Positions 31,414 to 42,285 are shown, counted from the first letter of the stretch. The stretch is 64,000 nucleotides of DNA from Bdellovibrionales bacterium GWB1_55_8 (GCA_001769835.1 MEPR01000039.1:56101-120100); one strand, 5' to 3'. The notes: generated by a model from the sequence alone, not told the origin. Numbers and translations: made by a program.

Positions 31414-32058
31414 TTACCTCCTTTCTTTATGCGTGGTCACTGCAGCGTCACTCGACGCATCGGTACCCCGCTCTTTTGGAGCGGAATCGTTGGCCCGGAC
31501 CACTCCGGCCAGAAGTTCTGTCAACCGCGACGACTTCGCGGGATCCATAAGATTCATGATCTTTGCTAAACGCTGCGTCGAAATCCGCGACATGGCCGAA
31601 ACCGCGAGCGTCTCATCAAGCGAGGTCAGAAGCTGCGACGCCGCTTTCGGGCTCATCGTCTCGAAAGTCTCCACCAGCTTGTTCACGCGTTCGTCGTTCT
31701 CGGACTTGCGGGATTCCTGCACCTTCGCAAGCTCCTTGCGTATTCCATCAAACTTCTTCAGCTCCTCCGCGATCGCGTCCTCGCGCGCCTTGAACTCCGC
31801 TTCCTTGGCAACAAGATTGCGTTCGCGCACCTGAAGAGCCTCGCGCTGCTTGCGCAGATCCTCGATCACCGAAGGATCCGTCAGGCATGCGCCCGACGCT
31901 GAGCTGGAAATATTCGTTTCCGTAGTGTCGCCCCCGGAACTCTCAGCTGCACCCGCCGACCCAGCCGCTGAAGGAGCCGGGGTCTCTGCACTTGCGAGCA
32001 CCGTCATGACGGCGGCAGCGAGAAACACCATGACTGCAAGCGTTCTGAGGAGTCTCAT
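31414..32058 (-). CDS. MotE/FlbB/YlxF-like flagellar protein (MgtE-N-like domain)
   Basis: Signal/TM N-terminus, coiled coil and an MgtE_N-like C-terminus (…LLTSLDETLAVSAMSRISTQRLAKIMNLMDPAKSSRL…). Sits between fliJ and fliK, as ylxF does in Bacillus. Confidence 0.5.
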   Translation of the reverse strand: MRLLRTLAVMVFLAAAVMTVLASAETPAPSAAGSAGAAESSGGDTTETNISSSASGACLTDPSVIEDLRKQREALQVRERNLVAKEAEFKAREDAIAEELKKFDGIRKELAKVQESRKSENDERVNKLVETFETMSPKAASQLLTSLDETLAVSAMSRISTQRLAKIMNLMDPAKSSRLTELLAGVVRANDSAPKERGTDASSDAAVTTHKERR

Positions 32059-32510
32059 CCGACAGCCCTCTCCTTCAGGCGATCTCTCATGACCGACATG
32101 TCGTCGAGCAGCTTCTGCTCGCGCTTGCTCTGCATCTTTCGAAATTCAGCATGCTCGCGGTCGTACAGCGACTCCATCATGCGAGTCTGACGCCGCGTAT
32201 GAAGAAAATACTTCAAAGCCTTTTCGACCGCGCGACTCGCGCGCATGATATCGCGGTCAGCGCGCACGATCCGATGTTTCGTTCCTGCGATGAATTCGTC
32301 CTCAAGCTGGAAGGAAAGAACGCCGATTGGTTCGATACCAAGATTCTCACGGCGGATCAGCGCATTCTGAAGTTCGGAAACAAGACGTCCCTTTTTCGAG
32401 AGCTCTTCCTGATAAGCCCGTTGCGCATCACCCAACGCACGAAGAGCCTCCTCTTCGCGGCTTTTGCGCAGATTCAATACAGTGGCCAGTCTGAATCGGA
32501 AGCGTCTCAT
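32055..32510 (-). CDS. fliJ: Flagellar export chaperone FliJ
   Basis: About 150-aa all-helical protein starting MRRFRFRLATVLNLRKSREEEALRAL (FliJ-type). Start placed at ATG 32510 rather than the ORF-track TTG at 32522. Confidence 0.65.
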   Translation of the reverse strand: MRRFRFRLATVLNLRKSREEEALRALGDAQRAYQEELSKKGRLVSELQNALIRRENLGIEPIGVLSFQLEDEFIAGTKHRIVRADRDIMRASRAVEKALKYFLHTRRQTRMMESLYDREHAEFRKMQSKREQKLLDDMSVMRDRLKERAVG

Positions 32511-32609
32511 GTCTAAGATCAATTCTGATCTTGAGGCTCACCGCCCGCTAGACTGAATGTTTTGCCGCATGAAGGGGCACCACTGCTGCCGAGTGGAAAA
32601 AAGTGCCGA

Positions 32610-33173
32610 TCAGAGTGCGCGGCTCTTCAAGCCCGGCGGCCCCACTCCGTTTGAAATGACTTGAAACGGATCCCAGCTCCCGGACCAGAGTCCTTTCGAT
32701 TCAAGGAAATTCTTTGTAAAATACTCGGTTACGCGTTTGAACTCGTGGCCCCAACTTATAATCCTGGAATAAAGAGTACGGTCCCAGAACCTGCCCTTCG
32801 CGTTCGTCTTGCGGGCTCCCATGATCTGAAAGGCCAGCGCTCCTGAAAACTCCCTGAGGAAGCCCTGAAAATTCCGCTTCGCGGAAACGAAGCCCTTCGC
32901 GTCTGCTTTCACGAGCAAATGCAGGTGATTTCCCACGTTTACAGATCGATACACGCGGATCCTGTAGCGCCGGGCGCAGTCGGCCAACAGGTGTTCGAAC
33001 AATTTTGCATTCTCGCGGGTCAGAAGAGACCACTTCCCTTGCGCGCGGCTGGACCGCAGGACGAGATAGATCGGGTGCTTATGGCTGAACGGACGAGCCA
33101 CCTTTCTTCGCCCCTGACGTACCCCTCCCCCATGCTCGAGACGAAGGGATGGCAGAAATGAAGCCTGTTTCAT
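32610..33173 (-). CDS. tnpA: IS200/IS605-family Y1 HUH transposase (TnpA/RAYT-like)
   Basis: HUH motif NHLHLLVKA plus a C-terminal RAYT-like FWDRTLYSRIISWGHEF (catalytic Tyr region). Start at MKQASFLP (33173). The ORF-track start at 33284 would read through the upstream palindrome. Confidence 0.75.
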   Translation of the reverse strand: MKQASFLPSLRLEHGGGVRQGRRKVARPFSHKHPIYLVLRSSRAQGKWSLLTRENAKLFEHLLADCARRYRIRVYRSVNVGNHLHLLVKADAKGFVSAKRNFQGFLREFSGALAFQIMGARKTNAKGRFWDRTLYSRIISWGHEFKRVTEYFTKNFLESKGLWSGSWDPFQVISNGVGPPGLKSRAL

Positions 33174-33174
33174 G

Positions 33175-33192
33175 ACCGGATATATATCCGGT
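33175..33192 (-). promoter_or_regulatory. 18-bp perfect palindrome ACCGGATATATATCCGGT, 2 nt upstream of the tnpA ATG. Likely the IS200-type left-end hairpin, which would occlude the RBS.
   Basis: Seen directly in the sequence. IS200 elements carry such hairpins, serving as TnpA recognition sites and translational repressors. Confidence 0.5.
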
Positions 33193-33376
33193 TCAGTTAA
33201 CCGTGTAAAGACGTTTGTTACGGGTGAACGCTGGGGCAATGGTATTTTGATCGTACAAACACTGATGGAAACAAGGTCTGTCACATCTATTCTGCTAACT
33301 GACCCTGGATTTTTCTCGACCTTGTCAAAGCGCCATGAAAGCCGATGCTGTCGCGGAGCCTTTCAATAGGTAAGCT

Positions 33377-33577
33377 TCAGTTTTTGCGATCACATAAGTC
33401 TTGAGCATTCGGCTCATTTTTTCGGCAGACATTATCGATCGTGTCCCAGCAACCACCCGAGTCCAGACACGAGTCCTGCTTCATCCACGTACATGCATTC
33501 AGAGCAGATACCAGGAGCAAGCATGCTGAGATCAGCATCATCGAGAAAAGCCGTCCGTTCGCCCTACTCCGGGTCAT
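33377..33577 (-). CDS. Small secreted Cys-rich lipoprotein, 66 aa with 7 Cys
   Basis: Signal peptide plus lipobox (LLVSALNAC), then a Cys-rich mature peptide CTWMKQDSCLDSGGCWDTIDNVCRKNEPNAQDLCDRKN. Overlaps the start of the upstream kinase gene by 4 nt. Confidence 0.4.
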   Translation of the reverse strand: MTRSRANGRLFSMMLISACLLLVSALNACTWMKQDSCLDSGGCWDTIDNVCRKNEPNAQDLCDRKN

Positions 33578-34071
33578 TCAAAGGCCTTCTTCTTGATCAG
33601 ATCAGCGATCTCGTCCGGACTCATGTTGTCGGTCTTGATCTCAAACCCAAGCGCACCGTTCAAAAATCTTCCTCTCTGATTTCGTTCCACTTCCTGGGTT
33701 TCAGAAACTTCCCTCTCGGCTTGCGGTCGTCCACGTTTCAGAATCCGAGCGGAGAGACTCCGAGTTTCAGCTGAAAGATAGAACACACGGGCAGGCTCGC
33801 CCACTCTCTGAATGAAATCTTCCATCAGGTCAGGACTCAAAAACAGGCTATCGAATACGATCGTCCTTGCGCCCAGGCGGCGATAAGCGCTGATCAGATC
33901 ACAGGCGACATTCAAGGCAAGTTTCTGTCGCGACTGCGTGGCAATCAAATTATCCGAAACGAACCCGAGAACGTCGCCTTCAATATACGCGGCATCGTCC
34001 AACTGGCATAGCAGAGTCCTTGCCACCCAGGTTTTTCCAACGCCCACGGTGCCGTTTACGATGATGAGCAT
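33574..34071 (-). CDS. Small P-loop kinase (AAA_33/gluconokinase-sized NTP-binding protein)
   Basis: 165 aa with Walker A NGTVGVGKT at residues 6-14 and a Walker B-like hydrophobic strand plus D (IVFDSLF). Confidence 0.55.
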   Translation of the reverse strand: MLIIVNGTVGVGKTWVARTLLCQLDDAAYIEGDVLGFVSDNLIATQSRQKLALNVACDLISAYRRLGARTIVFDSLFLSPDLMEDFIQRVGEPARVFYLSAETRSLSARILKRGRPQAEREVSETQEVERNQRGRFLNGALGFEIKTDNMSPDEIADLIKKKAFE

Positions 34072-34197
34072 GTCTCAATCGTAAGTAGCGGCAGCCCGCC
34101 CGTCGAGCTAAAAAATACCGGAGCTCCATGCGAAAACATCGAAGTAAGAATCGCCGATGTCTTCGCATGAAGTTCCGGGTTCGAATTCACTGCAGTC

Positions 34198-34653
34198 CTA
34201 TTCGGACTTCTGTTGTACACATCTGATGTTCTGCTGATCGACTGTTTCAATGAACTCATCCACAAGGTCTTCGAGGTGTGAAACGATCTTGTGCCGAAGG
34301 TCAGGAGTGTCATCGAAGTACCTTACTTTTTTCCCTCGATCAGAAAGCGTGCTGAATACCGTCACGCCATTCGATTTCACGGCCTTAAGCCAGATTCTGT
34401 TCCTGAAAAAACTGGCACAAGACACCACGCCGCACTTTGCAAGCCCGGTCCACCCTGTGTAGTAATCCGTCTCAAGGAATATATGAGCAGGCACTCCCTG
34501 CGGCACCACATGATAGCCCTTCGTTAACAAGTGTTGCTGAGCCCATGTGTCATCGGTTGAGATCGTGCAGTTTAACGATGGACCGTCTTTCGCGTACGCT
34601 GATGAGACCGCGACCAAGCAGATTCCAACGATAGCCATAATTTTGCCGTTCAT
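34198..34653 (-). CDS. Hypothetical secreted protein
   Basis: Signal peptide MNGKIMAIVGICLVAVSSAYA. 4 Cys in the mature part. Low local GC. Confidence 0.4.
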   Translation of the reverse strand: MNGKIMAIVGICLVAVSSAYAKDGPSLNCTISTDDTWAQQHLLTKGYHVVPQGVPAHIFLETDYYTGWTGLAKCGVVSCASFFRNRIWLKAVKSNGVTVFSTLSDRGKKVRYFDDTPDLRHKIVSHLEDLVDEFIETVDQQNIRCVQQKSE

Positions 34654-34888
34654 ATGTTCTCCATTTTCTTCTTCCGGTTCAGCCCGGAAGCGAAAACGAG
34701 AATACGCCGCAATAGTCCAGGTCTCCGCTGACATCCTCTGACGTAAAGTAACATACGGAATTCACGAAAGAATCGCGATTCCTGCCGACCCTGCTCTACT
34801 TCGGCGCACCCTTGAAATTATCGGCCGGCTATGAGCATATGGCCCTCGTCGACTTGCACAATTCCAAACTTTTAGCGTCTCTATCGAG

Positions 34889-36268
34889 GTGATCCGGATG
34901 AGAGCTTTGTTCATCACACTTCCATTTCTGTTCATCGGCATAAACTCGGCCACTGCCGATGTTCTTCCGATTCAGGCAAACTACGTTTCGACGCGGGCCC
35001 AGGAAGGAATCATGTCTTTCGACCATTTCGTCGAGTTCAACGCGGATGCGAGGCAATCCGACACGGCACTTCAGGGCTGGGCGCGGCAGGCGATTGAAAA
35101 GCAGCTCATGTTTCTGATCGGTTCAATGAGGTGGCACTTCTCCGTTCCGAAGGGCGATCACAAAATCACGGAGCTGCGCCTTGCCCCGAAAAGCGCACAG
35201 GGTGTGACGATGATCGCCTCTTACCATTACGAGGGAACCGTTCAGATCCGCGAGGACGTACCCCTTCCGCTCAGGCTCGTGCTTCCGAATAACCCCTATC
35301 GGTTTTACTGGGACGGTCTCGTGCGAGATGGCTTCAAAATAAGCGCGCCTTGCACGCAGAAGCATTATCGTTGGCCGAGCGACCTGTTTTATTTCTGGCA
35401 CCCTTACGCTCCCGCGTGTCCATGGAAACGCGGCGAGGACTACCAGGAGATCCAGCCTGAAATCGTTTTAAAAAATAACGACGAAACGACCTATCCGGAA
35501 TACGACCGGCTTGTCGACCCCGCCACCCGTACGATCTCGATGTGGATACTTGTCGGACCTGCCAGCAACAAATCCATGAATCCGATGACCTCTCCTGATA
35601 TCAATGCGCAGACTTTCTGTGAATTCCGGGAACATTTCCTGCGTAAGGGATTTTCTTCACGGCGTTGGACCTCCAAAGAAATCCGCAGGAAGGGGAACAC
35701 CCTCTTCGCGAAACTCCCTTGGGTCGAGGATTTCGAAAAACAAGGCGCCCGATCCCGTATCCTGATCCACGCATTCTATGGCCATACCGCGGTGAAGGAT
35801 TTCAGCCGCGCTTTTTACCACTTTCTTGAGGACGGGGTCGAGAACGCCTCAATGGTGGTGTACGCAGGACATGCAGGATTGGGCAAAACCCTTGCACCTT
35901 CCGTAGCGGAAAAGATCGGGCTACTCAGGATGCGACCCAATCGGGATCGCTACCAGATCTATTTCTTCAACGGATGCAGCACTTACGCTTATTACACGCA
36001 ACCCTACTTCACGCGTAAAGCGAGCGCTTTGGATCCAGAAGGCACAAAGAACCTCGACATCATCACAACCGGCCTGGCCACAGGCGAGGACTTCCTCGGG
36101 AGTAGTTCACTCGCCGCGATCGATGCTGTGACGGACTGGGCTGATGGCGGTGCTGCCGCAAGTTATCAGGAAATCCTGAAACGCGCAGGTGGTTCCAATT
36201 TGCTGAGCGTCAGCGGAGATGAAGACAATCCGTCATCTCCGCAAAAACCCTTCCAAACGCGCGATTAA
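34889..36268 (+). CDS. Secreted protein with a putative clan-CD (caspase/clostripain/gingipain-like) cysteine peptidase His-Cys dyad
   Basis: Signal peptide (LFITLPFLFIGINSATA). The C-terminal half has a hydrophobic strand plus GH (MVVYAGHAGLG) followed ~40 aa later by a hydrophobic strand plus xC (QIYFFNGCSTYAYY), the arrangement typical of CD-clan peptidases. Confidence 0.4.
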   Translation: MIRMRALFITLPFLFIGINSATADVLPIQANYVSTRAQEGIMSFDHFVEFNADARQSDTALQGWARQAIEKQLMFLIGSMRWHFSVPKGDHKITELRLAPKSAQGVTMIASYHYEGTVQIREDVPLPLRLVLPNNPYRFYWDGLVRDGFKISAPCTQKHYRWPSDLFYFWHPYAPACPWKRGEDYQEIQPEIVLKNNDETTYPEYDRLVDPATRTISMWILVGPASNKSMNPMTSPDINAQTFCEFREHFLRKGFSSRRWTSKEIRRKGNTLFAKLPWVEDFEKQGARSRILIHAFYGHTAVKDFSRAFYHFLEDGVENASMVVYAGHAGLGKTLAPSVAEKIGLLRMRPNRDRYQIYFFNGCSTYAYYTQPYFTRKASALDPEGTKNLDIITTGLATGEDFLGSSSLAAIDAVTDWADGGAAASYQEILKRAGGSNLLSVSGDEDNPSSPQKPFQTRD

Positions 36269-38455
36269 CAGGTCTAAAATCGAAATTCTATCCTTTGAGA
36301 CTGGCTCCCCGATTCTCCCCTTTTCGAGTTCCGCAAGCTCCCGCGCCTTCAATGTACGAACCGCCTGCTCGGCTTTCGATCGATCGCTGGCAAGCGCCGC
36401 TTCAGCGGACTTGGCAAGAGCCGTATCCGATTGGATCAATTCCTTTTCCCGTCTGAGCTCATCGTCTGAAGGCACCCGCCTTGTTCTGAATTCTGGTTCT
36501 GCGGGAAGTGTAAGTTCCACTTTACTCAGCCAGACGTCAGAAGGAGCACCGGTTCTCGCAGAAGGAGCGAGACAACTTGGGTCTGCGGAGAAAATATTGA
36601 AACTCAGGAAACTTCGATCGGGGGAAAGCGACATCTGAACGTCCAGCTTCGCGTCCCGATGTGATGCAAGCCACAGGGATTTCGGTGTTCTTGAGAAAGA
36701 CGATTTGCAGTTCCTGAATTGAATGGTGCCACTCCACGAGTCAGGTTTGATGGTCAGATCAGCACTGAAATCGCGGCGCGATACCTGGACCTTCACCACA
36801 CCAGCAGCGGCATCGCAGTTCACCTTGAGTTTCACATCAGCAAATTTTTGGCCGTTCGGAACTTCCCCGGCGGAAGCATAATGGGCGATCTCCGGCTTCT
36901 TCGGATCAAAGTCGCGTCTCTCAATCCGCACCTTCTTGGGATGTCCTTTTTTATCGAAAAGGTCAGGATCAGAACAGTAGAGCCTGTAAATCTCTTTCGC
37001 ATCGCGAGATTTCAGACCCCGCGATTTTATGAGATCCGGGAAACGCATACCGGCGGTTTGGATGACTCCGGAAATATCCTCGATCGACTCCGCGCGAATG
37101 ACACCGCCCCCTTCTTTTCGGATAGCCAGATAGACGTTCCCTAGCGAGTCTTTGATTCCGGTTTCCTTGCACCCAACATGACTGCGGTAGAGGCTGAAAT
37201 ACGGGGAGTTATAGTAACCCTCCTTCGCTATACCGCCGACATCACCACCGCCGCCTTTGCCGACATCACCACCGCCGCCTTTGCCGACATCACCACCGCC
37301 GCCTTTGCCGACATCACCACCGCCGCCTTTGCCGACATCACCACTGAACCTCAGTCCAGATGACGAATCCACAAACGGACTCGGACACACGGATTGAAAC
37401 CGTTCCGTAGTAGCGCCGACACGAAAAGTGATCTCGGGCGTGCCCACAGCTCCACCTGGTGTTTGTGTCACCGTCCGGTCGTAGTAATACGGAGACCCTT
37501 CTGCTTTCGAGACATCAAGCCCATTCATGAGCCCTGGAAGGGCCTCATTGATGGTCTCGATCGGAACCGCGACGGACTGGGTTTCGTTCAAGAACGTCTT
37601 CAGAAGTATTCCAGAGAGGAAAGTTTTCGATTCGAAGATCTCACTGGTTCCGCTTCGGGGTACCAAAACGGTGTAAATAATCGGACTGCCACTCATGCCT
37701 GGCCGGACACCCTGCTTCGGCAATAGGACTGCGCTCCTACTCCCGATAAGCGGATGCTCTGCAGCTTGGGTCGCGAGCTCGATTTGCACGGGAAAACGAT
37801 TGGGGATCACCTTCAATCCATCTTCAGTCACTCGTGCGAGATGCAGATTTTCCCGATTGACGAAATCCGCCGCTGTTTGGATGTAATGGCTGCCTTCTGG
37901 CAGCCAGTTTTCGCGATTAATGGGAAGCAGGTGGCGAACTTCAGCCACGGGCAGTTTGAAACCATCCCAAACAAATAAGGGCGTCAGGTCCGAAACAATC
38001 TTCTCTAATTCCAGGACCGCGAGATCCTTCGTCTGGCTGATACCGCGAACTTTTGCCTGAACAACTTTCCCCCCGCAGCGGACCTGGACCTTTTCGGCGC
38101 CTGCGACCACGTGTGCGGCGGTCAAAACGAACAGATGTTTTGGTTCATTGGCCGATTTAAAGACAGAGCCTTGCCCAATCGAGGACAGCGAGTCTTTACC
38201 GGACTGCCTCTGCCCCTCGATCTCGACTACTTCGCACCGGTCCAGAACCGGGGCGTTGTTCGCGATTCGATCCAGCCATCTCACCAGCTCCGGCTCAAGG
38301 AGCGCCTCGCCTGACAAGCCACTATTGCAACAAGGGTCCGCAGTCACTGGCGAAGATGAGCCAGACAAAGCCATTGCAGGGATCATCGATCCCGCGACGC
38401 CGAAGAGAATAGTGAGCACTCGCAGTGGAAAACTGCACATCGTTCGTTTATTCAT
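36233..38455 (-). CDS. Large secreted trypsin-like (S1 family) serine protease with an internal (GDVGKGGG)n tandem repeat and a C-terminal coiled coil
   Basis: Signal peptide MNKRTMCSFPLRVLTILFGVAGSMIPAMA. Catalytic His (VLTAAHVVAG), Asp (KDLAVLEL) and Ser (GMSGSPII) in S1 order. Repeats GDVGKGGG ×4.5, then …ELRREKELIQSDTALAKSAEAALASDRSKAEQAVRTLKARELAELEK. Start chosen at the signal-peptide Met. Confidence 0.6.
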   Translation of the reverse strand: MNKRTMCSFPLRVLTILFGVAGSMIPAMALSGSSSPVTADPCCNSGLSGEALLEPELVRWLDRIANNAPVLDRCEVVEIEGQRQSGKDSLSSIGQGSVFKSANEPKHLFVLTAAHVVAGAEKVQVRCGGKVVQAKVRGISQTKDLAVLELEKIVSDLTPLFVWDGFKLPVAEVRHLLPINRENWLPEGSHYIQTAADFVNRENLHLARVTEDGLKVIPNRFPVQIELATQAAEHPLIGSRSAVLLPKQGVRPGMSGSPIIYTVLVPRSGTSEIFESKTFLSGILLKTFLNETQSVAVPIETINEALPGLMNGLDVSKAEGSPYYYDRTVTQTPGGAVGTPEITFRVGATTERFQSVCPSPFVDSSSGLRFSGDVGKGGGGDVGKGGGGDVGKGGGGDVGKGGGGDVGGIAKEGYYNSPYFSLYRSHVGCKETGIKDSLGNVYLAIRKEGGGVIRAESIEDISGVIQTAGMRFPDLIKSRGLKSRDAKEIYRLYCSDPDLFDKKGHPKKVRIERRDFDPKKPEIAHYASAGEVPNGQKFADVKLKVNCDAAAGVVKVQVSRRDFSADLTIKPDSWSGTIQFRNCKSSFSRTPKSLWLASHRDAKLDVQMSLSPDRSFLSFNIFSADPSCLAPSARTGAPSDVWLSKVELTLPAEPEFRTRRVPSDDELRREKELIQSDTALAKSAEAALASDRSKAEQAVRTLKARELAELEKGRIGEPVSKDRISILDLLIARLEGFLRR
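37222..37345. repeat. Perfect 24-bp tandem repeat (GACATCACCACCGCCGCCTTTGCC) ×4, plus one partial copy at each end (about 5.3 copies), in-frame within the S1 protease gene
   Basis: Seen directly: …gccgacatcaccaccgccgcctttgcc ×4 …gacatcaccactgaa. Encodes GDVGKGGG units on the minus strand. Confidence 0.9.
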
Positions 38456-38534
38456 CGGCATAACCTGGTGACTTCCTAAGTATTCTTTGTCTGCTTGCCG
38501 ATAAGAGTCCTGGAGGGCTCCCGGGAGCTGCGTC

Positions 38535-39728
38535 ATGAAACATAAATACGGCTCTACTGCTCTGAACAAGAGCCCAACACTGAGGAGCAGCGAACTTTCG
38601 GCGATCTACTACTCGCTGGTCGAGATGATCTTGCAAGGCCGCTATGAAGCAACGGCGGAAGCCCTGAACCAACTTCGTCGTGGAAGCCCGTTCACGCATG
38701 ACGATAACGAAGCTATTCGCAGATTGATTGCCGCGCGCCTCGCGATAAAACAAGGCGATGCTGGTGAGGACACATCCTGGCTGGATATTCCAGTTCCGGA
38801 GAATTCCTGGCTTGCTGCTGAAAAGGAAATTGTAAAAGGTCATTGGGAGTATCACCTGCAGAACTTTCCGATGGGCATCACGCACTTTAAGGAGGCGGAG
38901 CGCCAATTCAAAAACCTGGGAATGCTCGATCGGGAGTTCCTCAGCGCTTTCAATCAAATCATCGGCGAAGTCAGTGGCCCCTCTCAGCTCCCCCCCCTTC
39001 AGCAGATCGATCAGCTTCGGCAGTTGGAGATCCGAGTCCGACAGCACCTCGAGAAAGTGGGCTGCGTGCGAGTTCAGGCGCTGATTCATCGACAAAAATC
39101 TCACGCATTTGAGGACCTGACCCTGTTCCACGCGGCGGTGGAAGAGATATCAAAAGCGATACAAATACTGGAGCTTCACGGGCCAGCCTCGGACTATCAA
39201 CTGGCCCTGCTTCAGGCTGCCGACCTGAGCCTGGATTTAGGTGACCAGTTCCGGGGTCGCACCTTTTTCGAATACGTCATTCCACCGCTCGATAAGAGAG
39301 TTGAATTTCCTCATGCCTACATAGCCTGGCGATTGGGCGGACCGCTTCCCGAGCAATCCAATTTTGAAATCCTGCCCGGCGGATGGAAGGAAAAGTTCGA
39401 GAAATTGAGAGCATCCCTCACTCCCGATAACAGTACTCCTCACGAATGGACCTGGAATCTCACCTCAGGTGAGATTCAAAGCCCTGAGCTTCTCAAACCC
39501 ATTCAACTCAAACCAGCAAGCCTGGAAGGGCGCCTCGTACAGATGTTGACCCGCAACAAGGCAACGAAGAACCTTCTAATTGAATCTTTCTGGCCCGGGC
39601 AAAGCGACAGACAGTTACTGGACAACCGCCTGCACAGGATGATCTCCCGCTTGAACAAAAAGTTGTCGAACCTCATCGAGTTTGACGGGAAAAGTTATCG
39701 TCTCAAGCGGCGATTACGGACTAAATGA
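38535..39728 (+). CDS. Atypical transcriptional regulator: N-terminal helical/TPR-like domain and C-terminal OmpR/PhoB-type winged-helix DNA-binding domain, with no receiver domain
   Basis: C-terminus …LEGRLVQMLTRNKATKNLLIESFWPGQSDRQLLDNRLHRMISRLNKKLSNLIEFDGKSYRLK matches the trans_reg_C pattern (LT..E..LL..L…vWg…..ld..i.rLRkKL…i.tvrg.GY.L). Divergently transcribed from the protease gene. Confidence 0.5.
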   Translation: MKHKYGSTALNKSPTLRSSELSAIYYSLVEMILQGRYEATAEALNQLRRGSPFTHDDNEAIRRLIAARLAIKQGDAGEDTSWLDIPVPENSWLAAEKEIVKGHWEYHLQNFPMGITHFKEAERQFKNLGMLDREFLSAFNQIIGEVSGPSQLPPLQQIDQLRQLEIRVRQHLEKVGCVRVQALIHRQKSHAFEDLTLFHAAVEEISKAIQILELHGPASDYQLALLQAADLSLDLGDQFRGRTFFEYVIPPLDKRVEFPHAYIAWRLGGPLPEQSNFEILPGGWKEKFEKLRASLTPDNSTPHEWTWNLTSGEIQSPELLKPIQLKPASLEGRLVQMLTRNKATKNLLIESFWPGQSDRQLLDNRLHRMISRLNKKLSNLIEFDGKSYRLKRRLRTK

Positions 39729-39799
39729 AAGAAATGCCGCCACTCTTCTTCTCGAAGAGGGCGGCATTCTCATGAACGGCTAAATAAACTCCTAGAGCA

Positions 39800-40642
39800 T
39801 CAAAGGACTGAGTCGGAACCCGGAACGCTGACACCCGCTTTGGTGAAATAGGCCTGAAAATCAGCTTCAGAGACTTCCTCGCCGTTGATTTCATACTTGG
39901 TTTCTGTTCCATCGAAGGACTGTTTCAACTCCGCCGAAAAATCCGCATACTCAAGTTTGAGGGCCACGGAGCCGCTGCCATCGGCCTCTGTGCTGCTGAA
40001 TTCCATTTCCACATCGGCTTGCAGTTCGAATTTCACATCACCCTTGGTCTGCGAGTGGACATCGCCCTTAACCTCGCCCTCGATCACGATCGAACCACCG
40101 CTCGTGGAGGTCGTTGCTTTGACTGCGATCTCGCCCGAAAGGTCGAACTTGTCGACATCGTTCAGCTTGCGGAATTCGTCGTCTTTCACTTCGTATTTCA
40201 GCGTGGCGGCGACCTTGGCTTCCGTTTCGCTGCCTGAGCCCTTCATTTCGATATTCATCGAAATCGGGCAGGACACATCAGGCTTGTCGGAAACCTGAAT
40301 TTTGATATTGAAGCTGGTGGCGCTCGTCGAAACAGGTACCGAATAGTCCACCTGACAAAGTTCGTCTGCCAGCTTCTCCTGCATTTCAATGGTGGTGGGA
40401 TCCGTCGTGAGCGCTGCCGAACGTGATCCAGCCGTGCCACTGAGAAAGGACAGCGCATGGAACCGGTTCACAACAGGAAGGGCGAGCGTTGCCGGCGCGC
40501 CAGGAACCGATTGATGAGTGCGGCCCGCGCTTTCGATTGTTGCCGACACGATGGCCTTCTGCTCATCTGTCAGCTTCTTTTGTCCACAACCAGTCACGAC
40601 GAGTGCCATCAGCACGGATACAAGCACAAATGCGTTTCTCAT
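39800..40642 (-). CDS. Hypothetical lipoprotein
   Basis: Lipobox LMALVVTGC. S/T/E/K-rich repetitive beta-rich mature domain. Confidence 0.5.
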   Translation of the reverse strand: MRNAFVLVSVLMALVVTGCGQKKLTDEQKAIVSATIESAGRTHQSVPGAPATLALPVVNRFHALSFLSGTAGSRSAALTTDPTTIEMQEKLADELCQVDYSVPVSTSATSFNIKIQVSDKPDVSCPISMNIEMKGSGSETEAKVAATLKYEVKDDEFRKLNDVDKFDLSGEIAVKATTSTSGGSIVIEGEVKGDVHSQTKGDVKFELQADVEMEFSSTEADGSGSVALKLEYADFSAELKQSFDGTETKYEINGEEVSEADFQAYFTKAGVSVPGSDSVL

Positions 40643-40803: not shown

Positions 40804-42285
40804 CTATTTTTGCTTCTGCCCGGTCTGCTGTGCCGCGAAGGCGGCTTCCACGCTCCGGACAATCGAATAGAGCATCCCGGTGGCCTGATCGTAAGTCGTT
40901 CGTTCATCGATTCCCTGCCGGAGAAACGCATTGATCCGCTCGATCGCGAAAATCGCCTGATCGATCTTCGCATTGCTGCCTTTCACATAGGCTCCGATAT
41001 TGATCAGATCCTCGGCCTGCGCGTAGGCTGCCATCCATTCCCTGACCTGGCCTGCCCAGAGATTATGTTCCTTGCTGATCACCGAACGCATCACACGACT
41101 TGCGCTCTGAAGCACATCAACGGCCGGGTAGTGATTGCGTTGCGCGATCTTCCTAGAAAGGACGATGTGCCCGTCCAGAATGGACCGGACGGAGTCCGCG
41201 ATCGGATCATCCATGTCATCGCCTTCCACGAGTACCGTGAACAAGCCCGTGATACTCCCCTTTTTCGGCGCCATGCCGGCGCGTTCAAGAAGCTTCGGAA
41301 GGGTCGAGAACACACTGGGAGTGTAGCCCTTGGAAGCCGGAGGTTCGCCCATGGCCAGCCCGATTTCACGCTGGGCCATCGAGAAGCGGGTCACTGAATC
41401 CATGAGCATCAAAACGTCTTTGCCCTGATCCCGGAAATACTCCGCGATCGTCATTCCAAGGAAGGCCCCGCGCATGCGGAGAAGCGGCGAACGATCAGAG
41501 GTTGAAACGACGACGACCGAACGAGCCAAAGCTTCCGGCCCCAGGTCCCGTTCGATGAACTCCCGGACCTCGCGTCCGCGCTCGCCGATCAGCGCAATCA
41601 CGTTCACCTCGGCCGAGGTATGCCTGGCCATCATCCCTAGCAGGACGGATTTTCCGACACCCGAACCTGCCATGATCCCGACACGCTGGCCCTTGCCACA
41701 AGTCATCAGCCCATTGATGGAACGAATTCCGAGATCCAGGGGCTCGGTAATCATTTCACGCTCGAGAGGATGGGATGGAACCTGGTACAGGCTCCGCTCC
41801 TCCAGCCATTCGCCACGTGAAACCAGCGGTCCCTTGCCGTCGATTGGAACGCCCTTTCCATCGATCACACGGCCGAGAAGCGCGTTTCCAACCGGGACCG
41901 TGGATTTATTCTTTCGAAGAACGACCAGGCTGTCGTTATGGACACCTGAGGCATCTTCAAAGGGCATCAGAAGAACACGCTTGTCGCGAAACCCGATCAC
42001 CTCGGCATCAACGCCTTCGTCCGCTCCTGGTTCGCTTGAGCTGAGAATGCGACAAAGACTTCCGACCGCTGCACCGGGCAGATGCGCCTCGTAAATGAGA
42101 CCAAGAGACTTGGTCACTTTACCGGCATGATTGTAGAGAAGCGTGTGTTTGAGCCGATCCTCGTACTTCGCGGAATCAATCTCCCAGGTCACGTGGTCTC
42201 GCTCCCATGCTCTGTCGAACTGGCGAAGAGAGCCGAGGAGATGCTCTGAAGCTGCGCCTCGACGCTTGCGTTGATCGCGTTCCAC
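40804..42285 (-). CDS. fliI: Flagellum-specific ATP synthase FliI
   Basis: Walker A GSGVGKS, Walker B …VLLMMDSVTRFSMAQREIGL… and an F1/T3SS ATPase fold. The ORF-track start overlaps fliH by 97 nt, so the true start is probably an alternative codon near 42190-42200. Confidence 0.9.
   Translation of the reverse strand: MERDQRKRRGAASEHLLGSLRQFDRAWERDHVTWEIDSAKYEDRLKHTLLYNHAGKVTKSLGLIYEAHLPGAAVGSLCRILSSSEPGADEGVDAEVIGFRDKRVLLMPFEDASGVHNDSLVVLRKNKSTVPVGNALLGRVIDGKGVPIDGKGPLVSRGEWLEERSLYQVPSHPLEREMITEPLDLGIRSINGLMTCGKGQRVGIMAGSGVGKSVLLGMMARHTSAEVNVIALIGERGREVREFIERDLGPEALARSVVVVSTSDRSPLLRMRGAFLGMTIAEYFRDQGKDVLMLMDSVTRFSMAQREIGLAMGEPPASKGYTPSVFSTLPKLLERAGMAPKKGSITGLFTVLVEGDDMDDPIADSVRSILDGHIVLSRKIAQRNHYPAVDVLQSASRVMRSVISKEHNLWAGQVREWMAAYAQAEDLINIGAYVKGSNAKIDQAIFAIERINAFLRQGIDERTTYDQATGMLYSIVRSVEAAFAAQQTGQKQK

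Follow-up and report, generated by a model that had tools for sequence, protein, structure and literature searches.

A predicted exported S1 serine protease family and its linked putative regulator gene in Bdellovibrionales

In the present study, we analysed a window of 64,000 nucleotides (nt) of DNA from Bdellovibrionales bacterium GWB1_55_8 (GCA_001769835.1 MEPR01000039.1:56101-120100), in which all positions are counted from the first letter. The results suggested that the product of a gene on its minus strand (36233..38455) is probably a serine endopeptidase of clan PA, family S1, that is exported and catalytically competent; it has the HtrA/DegP protease domains as its closest relatives of solved structure and belongs to an unannotated family. 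The most likely role of the protease is to degrade or process proteins outside the cell or in the periplasm, and this may be linked to predation. Bdellovibrio-like predators depend on large sets of secreted hydrolases, most of which are uncharacterised. Taken as a protease alone, the protein represents an ordinary and well-known enzyme class; what is new here is the accessory C-terminal domain, the conserved glycine/cysteine loop and the obligate partner gene. The analysis defined a coherent, unannotated protease family with a linked putative regulator and a possible operator, and one of its members occurs in a culturable organism. An initial annotation, made by a model from the DNA alone, had described the gene as a multi-domain secreted S1 protease with a non-canonical serine motif and a C-terminal coiled coil.

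The protease gene and its family

The features of the protease gene, with protein positions in amino acids (aa), were as follows.

36233..38455, minus strand: protease gene, 740 aa plus stop (open reading frame (ORF) list, orthologs P0001 and P0002, match to the family hidden Markov model (HMM) at E=4e-136)
38369..38455, minus strand: predicted Sec signal peptide, aa 1-29 (MNKRTMCSFPLRVLTILFGVAGSMIPAMA/LS, cut before LS), from hydrophobicity, with the cleavage site placed by eye
37496..38248, minus strand: S1 (PA-clan, HtrA-like) protease domain, about aa 70-320, with conserved C74 and C127 (Trypsin_2; family profile against the PDB)
38111..38113, minus strand: catalytic His115 (LTAAHVV), invariant in 61 sequences and aligned to the catalytic His of HtrA
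38024..38026, minus strand: catalytic Asp144 (DLAVLEL), invariant in 61 sequences and aligned to the HtrA DLAV
37691..37693, minus strand: catalytic Ser255 in RPG253-M-S255-G256-SP, aligned to the DegP PGNSGG by the full and the Ser-half profiles
37169..37387, minus strand: glycine-rich loop between conserved Cys357 and Cys429, both invariant in a 12-sequence alignment
37235..37344, minus strand: perfect 24-nt tandem repeat, 4.6 copies, encoding GDVGKGGG units (Tandem Repeats Finder: period 24, 100% matches)
36491..37222, minus strand: family-specific C-terminal domain, about aa 412-655, with C429, C494, C547, C583, C628, G576 and W595 conserved in 61 relatives
36236..36478, minus strand: clade-specific charged helical tail, aa 660-740 (AlphaFold2 (AF2) and composition), restricted to the window protein, P0001 and P0002

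The minus-strand reading frame 36233..38569 was open over 778 aa when counted from a TTG codon. Two start options were found within it: ATG 38455, which gives the 740-aa version, and ATG 38461, which lies six bases upstream and is used by P0001, a database protein 99% identical to the protease. The sequence AGGAAG was located about 11 nt before ATG 38461. The second ortholog, P0002, comes from the metagenome-assembled genome of Bdellovibrionales bacterium RIFOXYC1_FULL_54_43 and showed 47% identity over 97% of the length (E=1e-207). The conservation of P0002, together with about 55 more distant clusters of the same layout, indicated that the ORF is a real gene and not a chance reading frame. 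The encoded protein contains 11 cysteines.

To collect the family, 1.84 billion representative proteins were searched exhaustively with HMMER, using three close sequences as the query. The search yielded 121 relatives, about 55 of which were 560-816 aa long and matched along most of the profile. These ~55 sequence clusters shared one layout, in which a signal peptide is followed by the S1 domain, by a glycine-rich loop that conserved cysteines flank, and by a C-terminal domain of about 240 aa. The initial annotation had considered the architecture unusual for S1 peptidases. A domain without a Pfam or PDB match is present, but this gene is not alone in having such an architecture, since ~55 clusters share the layout and only the helical tail is clade-specific. 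A word-indexed homology search recovered two relatives, with the whole protein and with the 61-sequence profile alike, and six with the family member from locus L006 (Bdellovibrio sp. HCB290); the low yield probably arose because glycine-rich words crowd the candidate list. Two loci were confirmed in a scan of a genome collection, the confirmation resting on the divergent query.

All of the named family members that were looked up (NCBI or JGI) are entered as 'hypothetical protein', among them ACLVWU_11675 of Bdellovibrio sp. HCB290, a cultured organism, and the two taxonomically named members outside the window belong to Bdellovibrionales/Bdellovibrio. Searches against PADLOC and PHROGs gave weak partial matches on the protease domain only and none for the partner gene product p397 or for the neighbouring genes, and they do not place the locus in a defence system or a phage. 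A study of the Bdellovibrio predation proteome features the subtilase-family serine protease Bd2269 as well as Bd2692 (PMC12546842), and no counterpart of the present family was found in that paper.

Catalytic triad and serine box

The ORF and the motif order given in the initial annotation, LTAAHVV, DLAVLEL and GMSGSP, were all found, at H115, D144 and S255. In an alignment of 61 relatives that are only ~20% identical to the window protein, the invariant columns were exactly H115, C127, D144, G253, S255 and G256. When the profile of these 61 sequences was compared with the PDB, it aligned with DegP/DegQ/HtrA structures (E=6e-12) from the His through the Ser box, with LTPaHVV opposite VTNNHV, DLAlL opposite DLAV, and rPGmSGsp opposite nPGNSGGa, and the alignment continued into the next helix. 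The proposed assignment to a trypsin- or HtrA-like S1 protease was supported by the family profile. The Ser-half profile (aa 228-318) alone recognized the Ser boxes of DegP/HtrA (E=0.007), SplD (E=0.027), HtrA1, SpoIVB and flavivirus NS3, with weaker matches to SplA, SplF, SplE and the exfoliative toxins. The oxyanion-hole glycine pattern (G-x-S-G) was present as G253-M-S255-G256, with both glycines invariant. The triad was thus not misaligned with solved S1 enzymes, and an active S1/PA-clan serine endopeptidase is the best reading of the protein; the invariance of His, Asp, Ser and both flanking glycines at ~20% identity indicated selection for catalysis.

The single sequence was recognized less clearly than the family profile. 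It scored 28.0 bits with the Pfam model Trypsin_2 (gathering score 27.6; E=4e-6), over aa 101-161, which include the His and Asp only. Trypsin_2 was matched by 45 of the 61 family members (best E=4e-10), and no other Pfam model was matched. The best PDB match of the single sequence was the cyanobacterial HtrA homolog HhoA (E=0.0066), again in the His/Asp region (aa 101-161). The initial annotation had named a search with Trypsin_2, together with the alignment of the triad, as its own test; without the family profile that test is borderline, because the single-sequence match is marginal and covers only His and Asp. The NCBIfam models degP_htrA_DO, DegQ, DegS and MarP scored the protease at 15-30 bits, below their cutoffs of 250-756, and the Pfam Trypsin model gave 13.3 bits against a cutoff of 20.6; the box GMSGSP also departs from the GDSGGP of chymotrypsin-type S1A enzymes. 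The AF2 model that includes the protease domain, built from a two-sequence alignment, had a mean predicted local distance difference test (pLDDT) score of 39. With this model, Foldseek retrieved only HtrA2, DegS, DegQ, MarP and arterivirus nsp4, over about 94 residues that comprise the first barrel only.

The description of the serine box as non-canonical did not hold within the family. In the 61-sequence alignment, the box reads G-[M/F/V/Y/W/L/I]-S-G-[S/A/G/T], usually followed by Pro, so that GMSGS, GFSGS, GVSGS and similar forms are the norm and only the position before the Ser differs. GMSGSP is therefore not a meaningful anomaly, since it follows the family norm and keeps the oxyanion Gly and the Ser. 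The residue before the catalytic Ser is Asp in chymotrypsin, where it is involved in zymogen activation, and Asn in HtrA and the staphylococcal enzymes; the window protease has a hydrophobic Met where HtrA/DegP has Asn. The SGSP ending also occurs in staphylococcal S1B enzymes (G-N-S-G-S-P). The likeness to this group (V8/GluV8, SplA-F and the exfoliative toxins), which consists of small secreted S1 enzymes, is local and limited to the Ser box, and unlike the window protease these are single-domain proteins of about 200-250 aa without a C-terminal domain.

Export signal, glycine-rich loop and C-terminal regions

The N-terminus of the protease consists of K/R residues and a hydrophobic run (aa 13-29), followed by AMA/LS. 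The most hydrophobic 19-mer of the protein was aa 13-31 (Kyte-Doolittle value 1.9), with no comparable segment further downstream, and an N-terminal hydrophobic run was found in 52 of 60 relatives. In addition, eight cysteines were invariant in the 12-sequence alignment. Both observations agree with the earlier proposal that the protein is secreted, and secretion of the protease is plausible from these sequence features.

Within the glycine-rich loop, G378 and G387 were near-invariant in the 61 sequences, and an S-x-W motif is conserved in the family alongside C357. Most members carry GGDWGDGGG, GGGDYGEGGG or GGSWADGGG (family consensus GGDWGxGGG or GGGDYGEGGG), often in 2-4 repeats. The GK-rich repeat of the initial annotation corresponds to the perfect 24-nt array of GDVGKGGG units, which is a property of the query clade: compared with the family, this clade has the basic GDVGKGGG instead of the acidic/aromatic motif, Gly for the conserved Trp at position 367, and about 80 extra C-terminal residues. 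Four full units of the 24-nt repeat are present in the window and three in L004 (11119..11214), a 99.9%-identical contig from another sample, and apart from the repeat unit there was one mismatch in 2.2 kb. This difference indicates that the repeat length probably varies by slippage, with assembly collapse as a caveat. An assignment to the RTX-type calcium-binding repeats was considered and rejected, as the period is 8 here and ~7-9 in relatives and the G-G-x-G-x-D register does not fit.

The initial annotation had given only about 300 of the 740 aa to the protease domain, and the non-protease 400 aa indeed fell outside known domains. No Pfam model matched outside the protease domain in any of the 61 relatives, and a 19-sequence profile of the C-terminal domain gave no match in the PDB. 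PDZ was matched neither in the protease nor in any of the 61 relatives, and the C-terminal profile retrieved no PDZ structure. Besides the residues listed above, G433 was likewise conserved in this region of ~240 aa. The AF2 model of the C-terminal part, also built from a two-sequence alignment, had a mean pLDDT of 51, and Foldseek returned only noise with it (best E=0.07).

The tail was the part of the C-terminal structure prediction that proved confident. Three helices were predicted, at aa 664-687, 692-714 and 721-739, with pLDDT values of 84-93, and 41% of the last ~80 aa are charged. The charged, helical character of the proposed coiled coil was therefore retained, with a continuous coiled coil as a doubtful reading: the helices are 19-24 aa long with breaks between them, and no single heptad register runs through all three. 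The best single register over aa 660-740 had 50% hydrophobic residues at the a/d positions, and only the last helix was cleanly amphipathic. The query has 112 residues after the last conserved Cys and P0002 has 128, versus 6-62 in most relatives. The 245-aa tail of another relative, P0007, is unrelated to that of the window protein.

The partner gene p397

The gene p397 lies next to the protease gene on the opposite strand, and its homologs accompany the family in several arrangements. Loci other than the window are designated by L numbers.

38535..39728, plus strand: p397, 397 aa, divergent to the protease gene, with a tetratricopeptide repeat (TPR)-like N-terminal part and a putative C-terminal ToxR/OmpR-like winged helix
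about 39462..39704, plus strand: predicted winged helix of p397 (C-terminal profile against ToxR)
38557..38572, minus strand: imperfect palindrome GCTCTtgttcAGAGC, candidate operator, 96 nt upstream of the protease ATG and within the first codons of p397 as called
Window, L003, L008: p397 homolog divergent
L007, L009, L011, L014: p397 homolog directly downstream, often overlapping
L012: p397 homolog upstream and overlapping
L010: p397 homolog convergent, contig end
L006, L013: p397 homolog beyond three small opposite-strand genes

At each of the ten independent loci examined as DNA, a p397 homolog lay no more than 2 kb from the gene of the protease family (hmmsearch E from 1e-36 to 1e-173), and an eleventh locus, whose DNA was not part of the comparison, has a 384-aa gene at the p397 position. 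In L007, the p397 homolog was 42% identical and the protease 25%, the partner being the better conserved of the two. The three small opposite-strand ORFs between protease and partner occupy 6765..8339 in L006, where they have signal-like hydrophobic N-termini, and 2653..4242 in L013; they could be further components of the module or substrates.

No signal peptide or hydrophobic segment was found in p397. Its N-terminal 300 aa gave weak TPR-type matches (SRP72 at E=0.002; TPR_MalT and TPR_2 in two of seven members). The most conserved block is C-terminal and reads W..., LE..LL..L...SK..L.E.LWP....LDNRLH.L.SRLN.K...I.FDG..Y.L. In the family profile, the C-terminal ~75 residues matched the ToxR DNA-binding domain at E=0.002 and PhoB-family regulators at E=0.14; the Pfam model Trans_reg_C was matched by one of seven members (E=0.004), and p397 of the window had no Pfam match. 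In comparison with ToxR and OmpR-PhoB, p397 has neither a receiver domain nor a transmembrane/periplasmic part, and its putative winged helix is located C-terminally, after a TPR-like region of ~300 aa. From these features we infer, as the most economical reading, that p397 may be a dedicated transcription factor of the protease gene.

Three diverged loci have near-identical palindromes of the form TCTCA-N4-GAGAC at a distance of 30-100 nt upstream of the protease gene, at L006 4736..4749, L009 5936..5949 and L013 522..535, the candidate site in HCB290 being TCTCAAAATGAGAC. These are three of only four matches to the pattern in 249 kb, the pattern having been spotted by eye and post hoc. The palindrome could be an operator or a hairpin in the 5' untranslated region, and is offered as a lead only.

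Proposed mechanism and alternative explanations

Based on these features, we propose that the protease would be exported through Sec and would then form disulfides among its eight invariant cysteines, probably C74 with C127, C494 with C547, C583 with C628 and, bracketing the glycine loop, C357 with C429. In place of the PDZ of HtrA, the C-terminal domain may direct the protease to a specific substrate or surface, or gate it there. A flexible hinge would be provided by the glycine loop, whose length may be changed by slippage of the 24-nt repeat, and the clade-specific helical tail may add self-association or anchoring. Transcription of the protease gene would be controlled by the adjacent cytoplasmic TPR-like/winged-helix protein p397.

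Several points weigh against this proposal. The single-sequence evidence for the protease is marginal (the Trypsin_2 match above), and the Ser half of the single sequence gave only chance matches in the PDB. Neither AF2 model is good (mean pLDDT 39 and 51), and they give no support for the fold of either the second barrel or the C-terminal domain. Most relatives are metagenomic 'hypothetical proteins'. The assignment of the p397 winged helix comes from the ToxR match at E=0.002, and an unbiased search for shared 8-mers upstream of the protease genes performed no better than on shuffled sequences. Finally, that the protease is exported, that its cysteines pair as above, that the C-terminal domain targets or gates it and that p397 regulates its gene are what we infer for this system.

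A sensing loop is conceivable, although we consider it unlikely. Here, the secreted protease would free peptides from prey or from a precursor, and after their uptake the TPR-like domain of p397 would bind them, thereby switching transcription. The protease and p397 families would then form an undescribed two-component module of Bdellovibrio-like bacteria, in which the protease, directed by its novel cysteine-rich domain, would make a signal, such as peptides from prey or from the cell itself, and p397 would read it; the odds for this are just as long. The linkage to p397 in ten of ten loci, the better conservation of the partner, and the combination of TPR-like and DNA-binding-like parts in a cytoplasmic protein are consistent with such a loop. 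An analogy is offered by the RRNPP peptide-sensing systems (NprR, PlcR, Rap), of which the loop would be a Gram-negative counterpart, and above all by NprR-NprA of the Firmicutes, in which a cytoplasmic TPR transcription factor is encoded beside the gene of a secreted protease, nprA, and activates it. NprR differs from p397 in its N-terminal helix-turn-helix, its protease is a metalloprotease, and the pair belongs to another phylum; homology was not detected, and no signalling-peptide gene was seen here. Neither a peptide precursor gene nor a dedicated oligopeptide importer was seen nearby at the examined loci, the TPR assignment of p397 is weak (E about 1e-3), and simple transcriptional control explains the linkage equally well. 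If the loop were true, it would represent a protease-coupled sensing circuit that resembles RRNPP systems of Gram-positive bacteria and may matter for the recognition of prey; either such a circuit or a C-terminal domain that proves to be a new targeting module would give insight into how Bdellovibrio-like bacteria deploy proteases.

It is quite unlikely that the protein is a diverged but ordinary HtrA/DegP periplasmic quality-control protease whose C-terminal part is a degenerate PDZ. HtrA/DegP/DegQ/DegS (MEROPS S1C) and MarP of M. tuberculosis (Rv3671c) are the closest detectable relatives of the protease domain, among solved structures as well as among NCBIfam/Pfam models. The alignment with this group covers the three catalytic blocks (TPAHVV with TNNHV for His, DLAVL with DLAV for Asp, PGMSGS with PGNSGG for Ser) and the helix that follows the second barrel, and all are exported, export of the window protease being predicted. 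However, the window protease has neither a PDZ nor the membrane helices of the MarP type, the PDZ is absent from all 61 members, and the C-terminal profile found no PDZ or other structure. The NCBIfam scores of ~27 bits are far under the family cutoffs of 250-750. Instead, the protease has conserved cysteines, a glycine-rich loop and an unrelated C-terminal domain of ~240 aa; to our knowledge, neither the cysteines and the glycine loop nor a dedicated regulator partner are features of HtrA. Its location in a low-GC insert, with no synteny between genomes, also argues against an ordinary housekeeping-type HtrA.

Our preferred reading, in which p397 regulates the protease gene, has a further competitor that we judge very unlikely, namely that p397 is a cytoplasmic TPR chaperone or inhibitor that keeps the protease inactive or export-competent and is not a transcription factor. 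TPR proteins often serve as secretion chaperones, and in L007, L009, L011 and L014 the two genes overlap, apparently with co-translation. On the other hand, the most conserved block of p397 aligns with the ToxR/PhoB winged helix, including the region of the recognition helix, and the divergent arrangement in three loci suits a regulator. That the protease fold is catalytically dead and serves as a binding or structural module is highly improbable: the domain is very divergent, barely detectable from the single sequence, and the query departs from the family consensus (LTAAH versus LTPAH; Gly for Trp 367), but the triad and both flanking glycines are invariant over 61 sequences.

Genomic neighbourhood

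The protease gene and p397 are located in a block of seven non-flagellar genes (32610..40642, ~8.2 kb), which splits fliJ (32055..32522) from fliI (40804..42285) in an otherwise contiguous flagellar export/hook cluster. The block contains an IS200/Y1-transposase-like ORF, an AAA_33/CPT-like kinase gene, p178, the putatively secreted p459, the protease gene, p397 and a lipoprotein gene. Its guanine-cytosine (GC) fraction was 0.52-0.54 versus 0.56-0.59 in the flanks, and the lower GC suggests an insertion. The same arrangement of the block was found in L004. Further features of the block were as follows.

32610..33284, minus strand: IS200/Y1-transposase-like ORF, 224 aa (weak Pfam match, E=0.006, below cutoff)
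34889..36268, plus strand: p459, 459-aa ORF with a signal-like N-terminus
39800..40642, minus strand: lipoprotein-like ORF, 280 aa, between p397 and fliI (lipobox ...VVTGC)

The transposase-like ORF stands at the edge of the block, beside fliJ, and may relate to the arrival of the block. p459 runs towards the protease gene, and the 3' ends of the two overlap by 36 nt; p459 had no match in Pfam, NCBIfam, PADLOC or PHROGs, and it was not found beside the protease family in other genomes. The 280-aa lipoprotein-like ORF gave a weak match to a bactofilin-like repeat (E=0.0025, below cutoff) and was found only in the genome of the window. In the genome that encodes P0002, the protease gene is located elsewhere, near secA, and the sole shared neighbour is a divergent p397 homolog with 61% identity.

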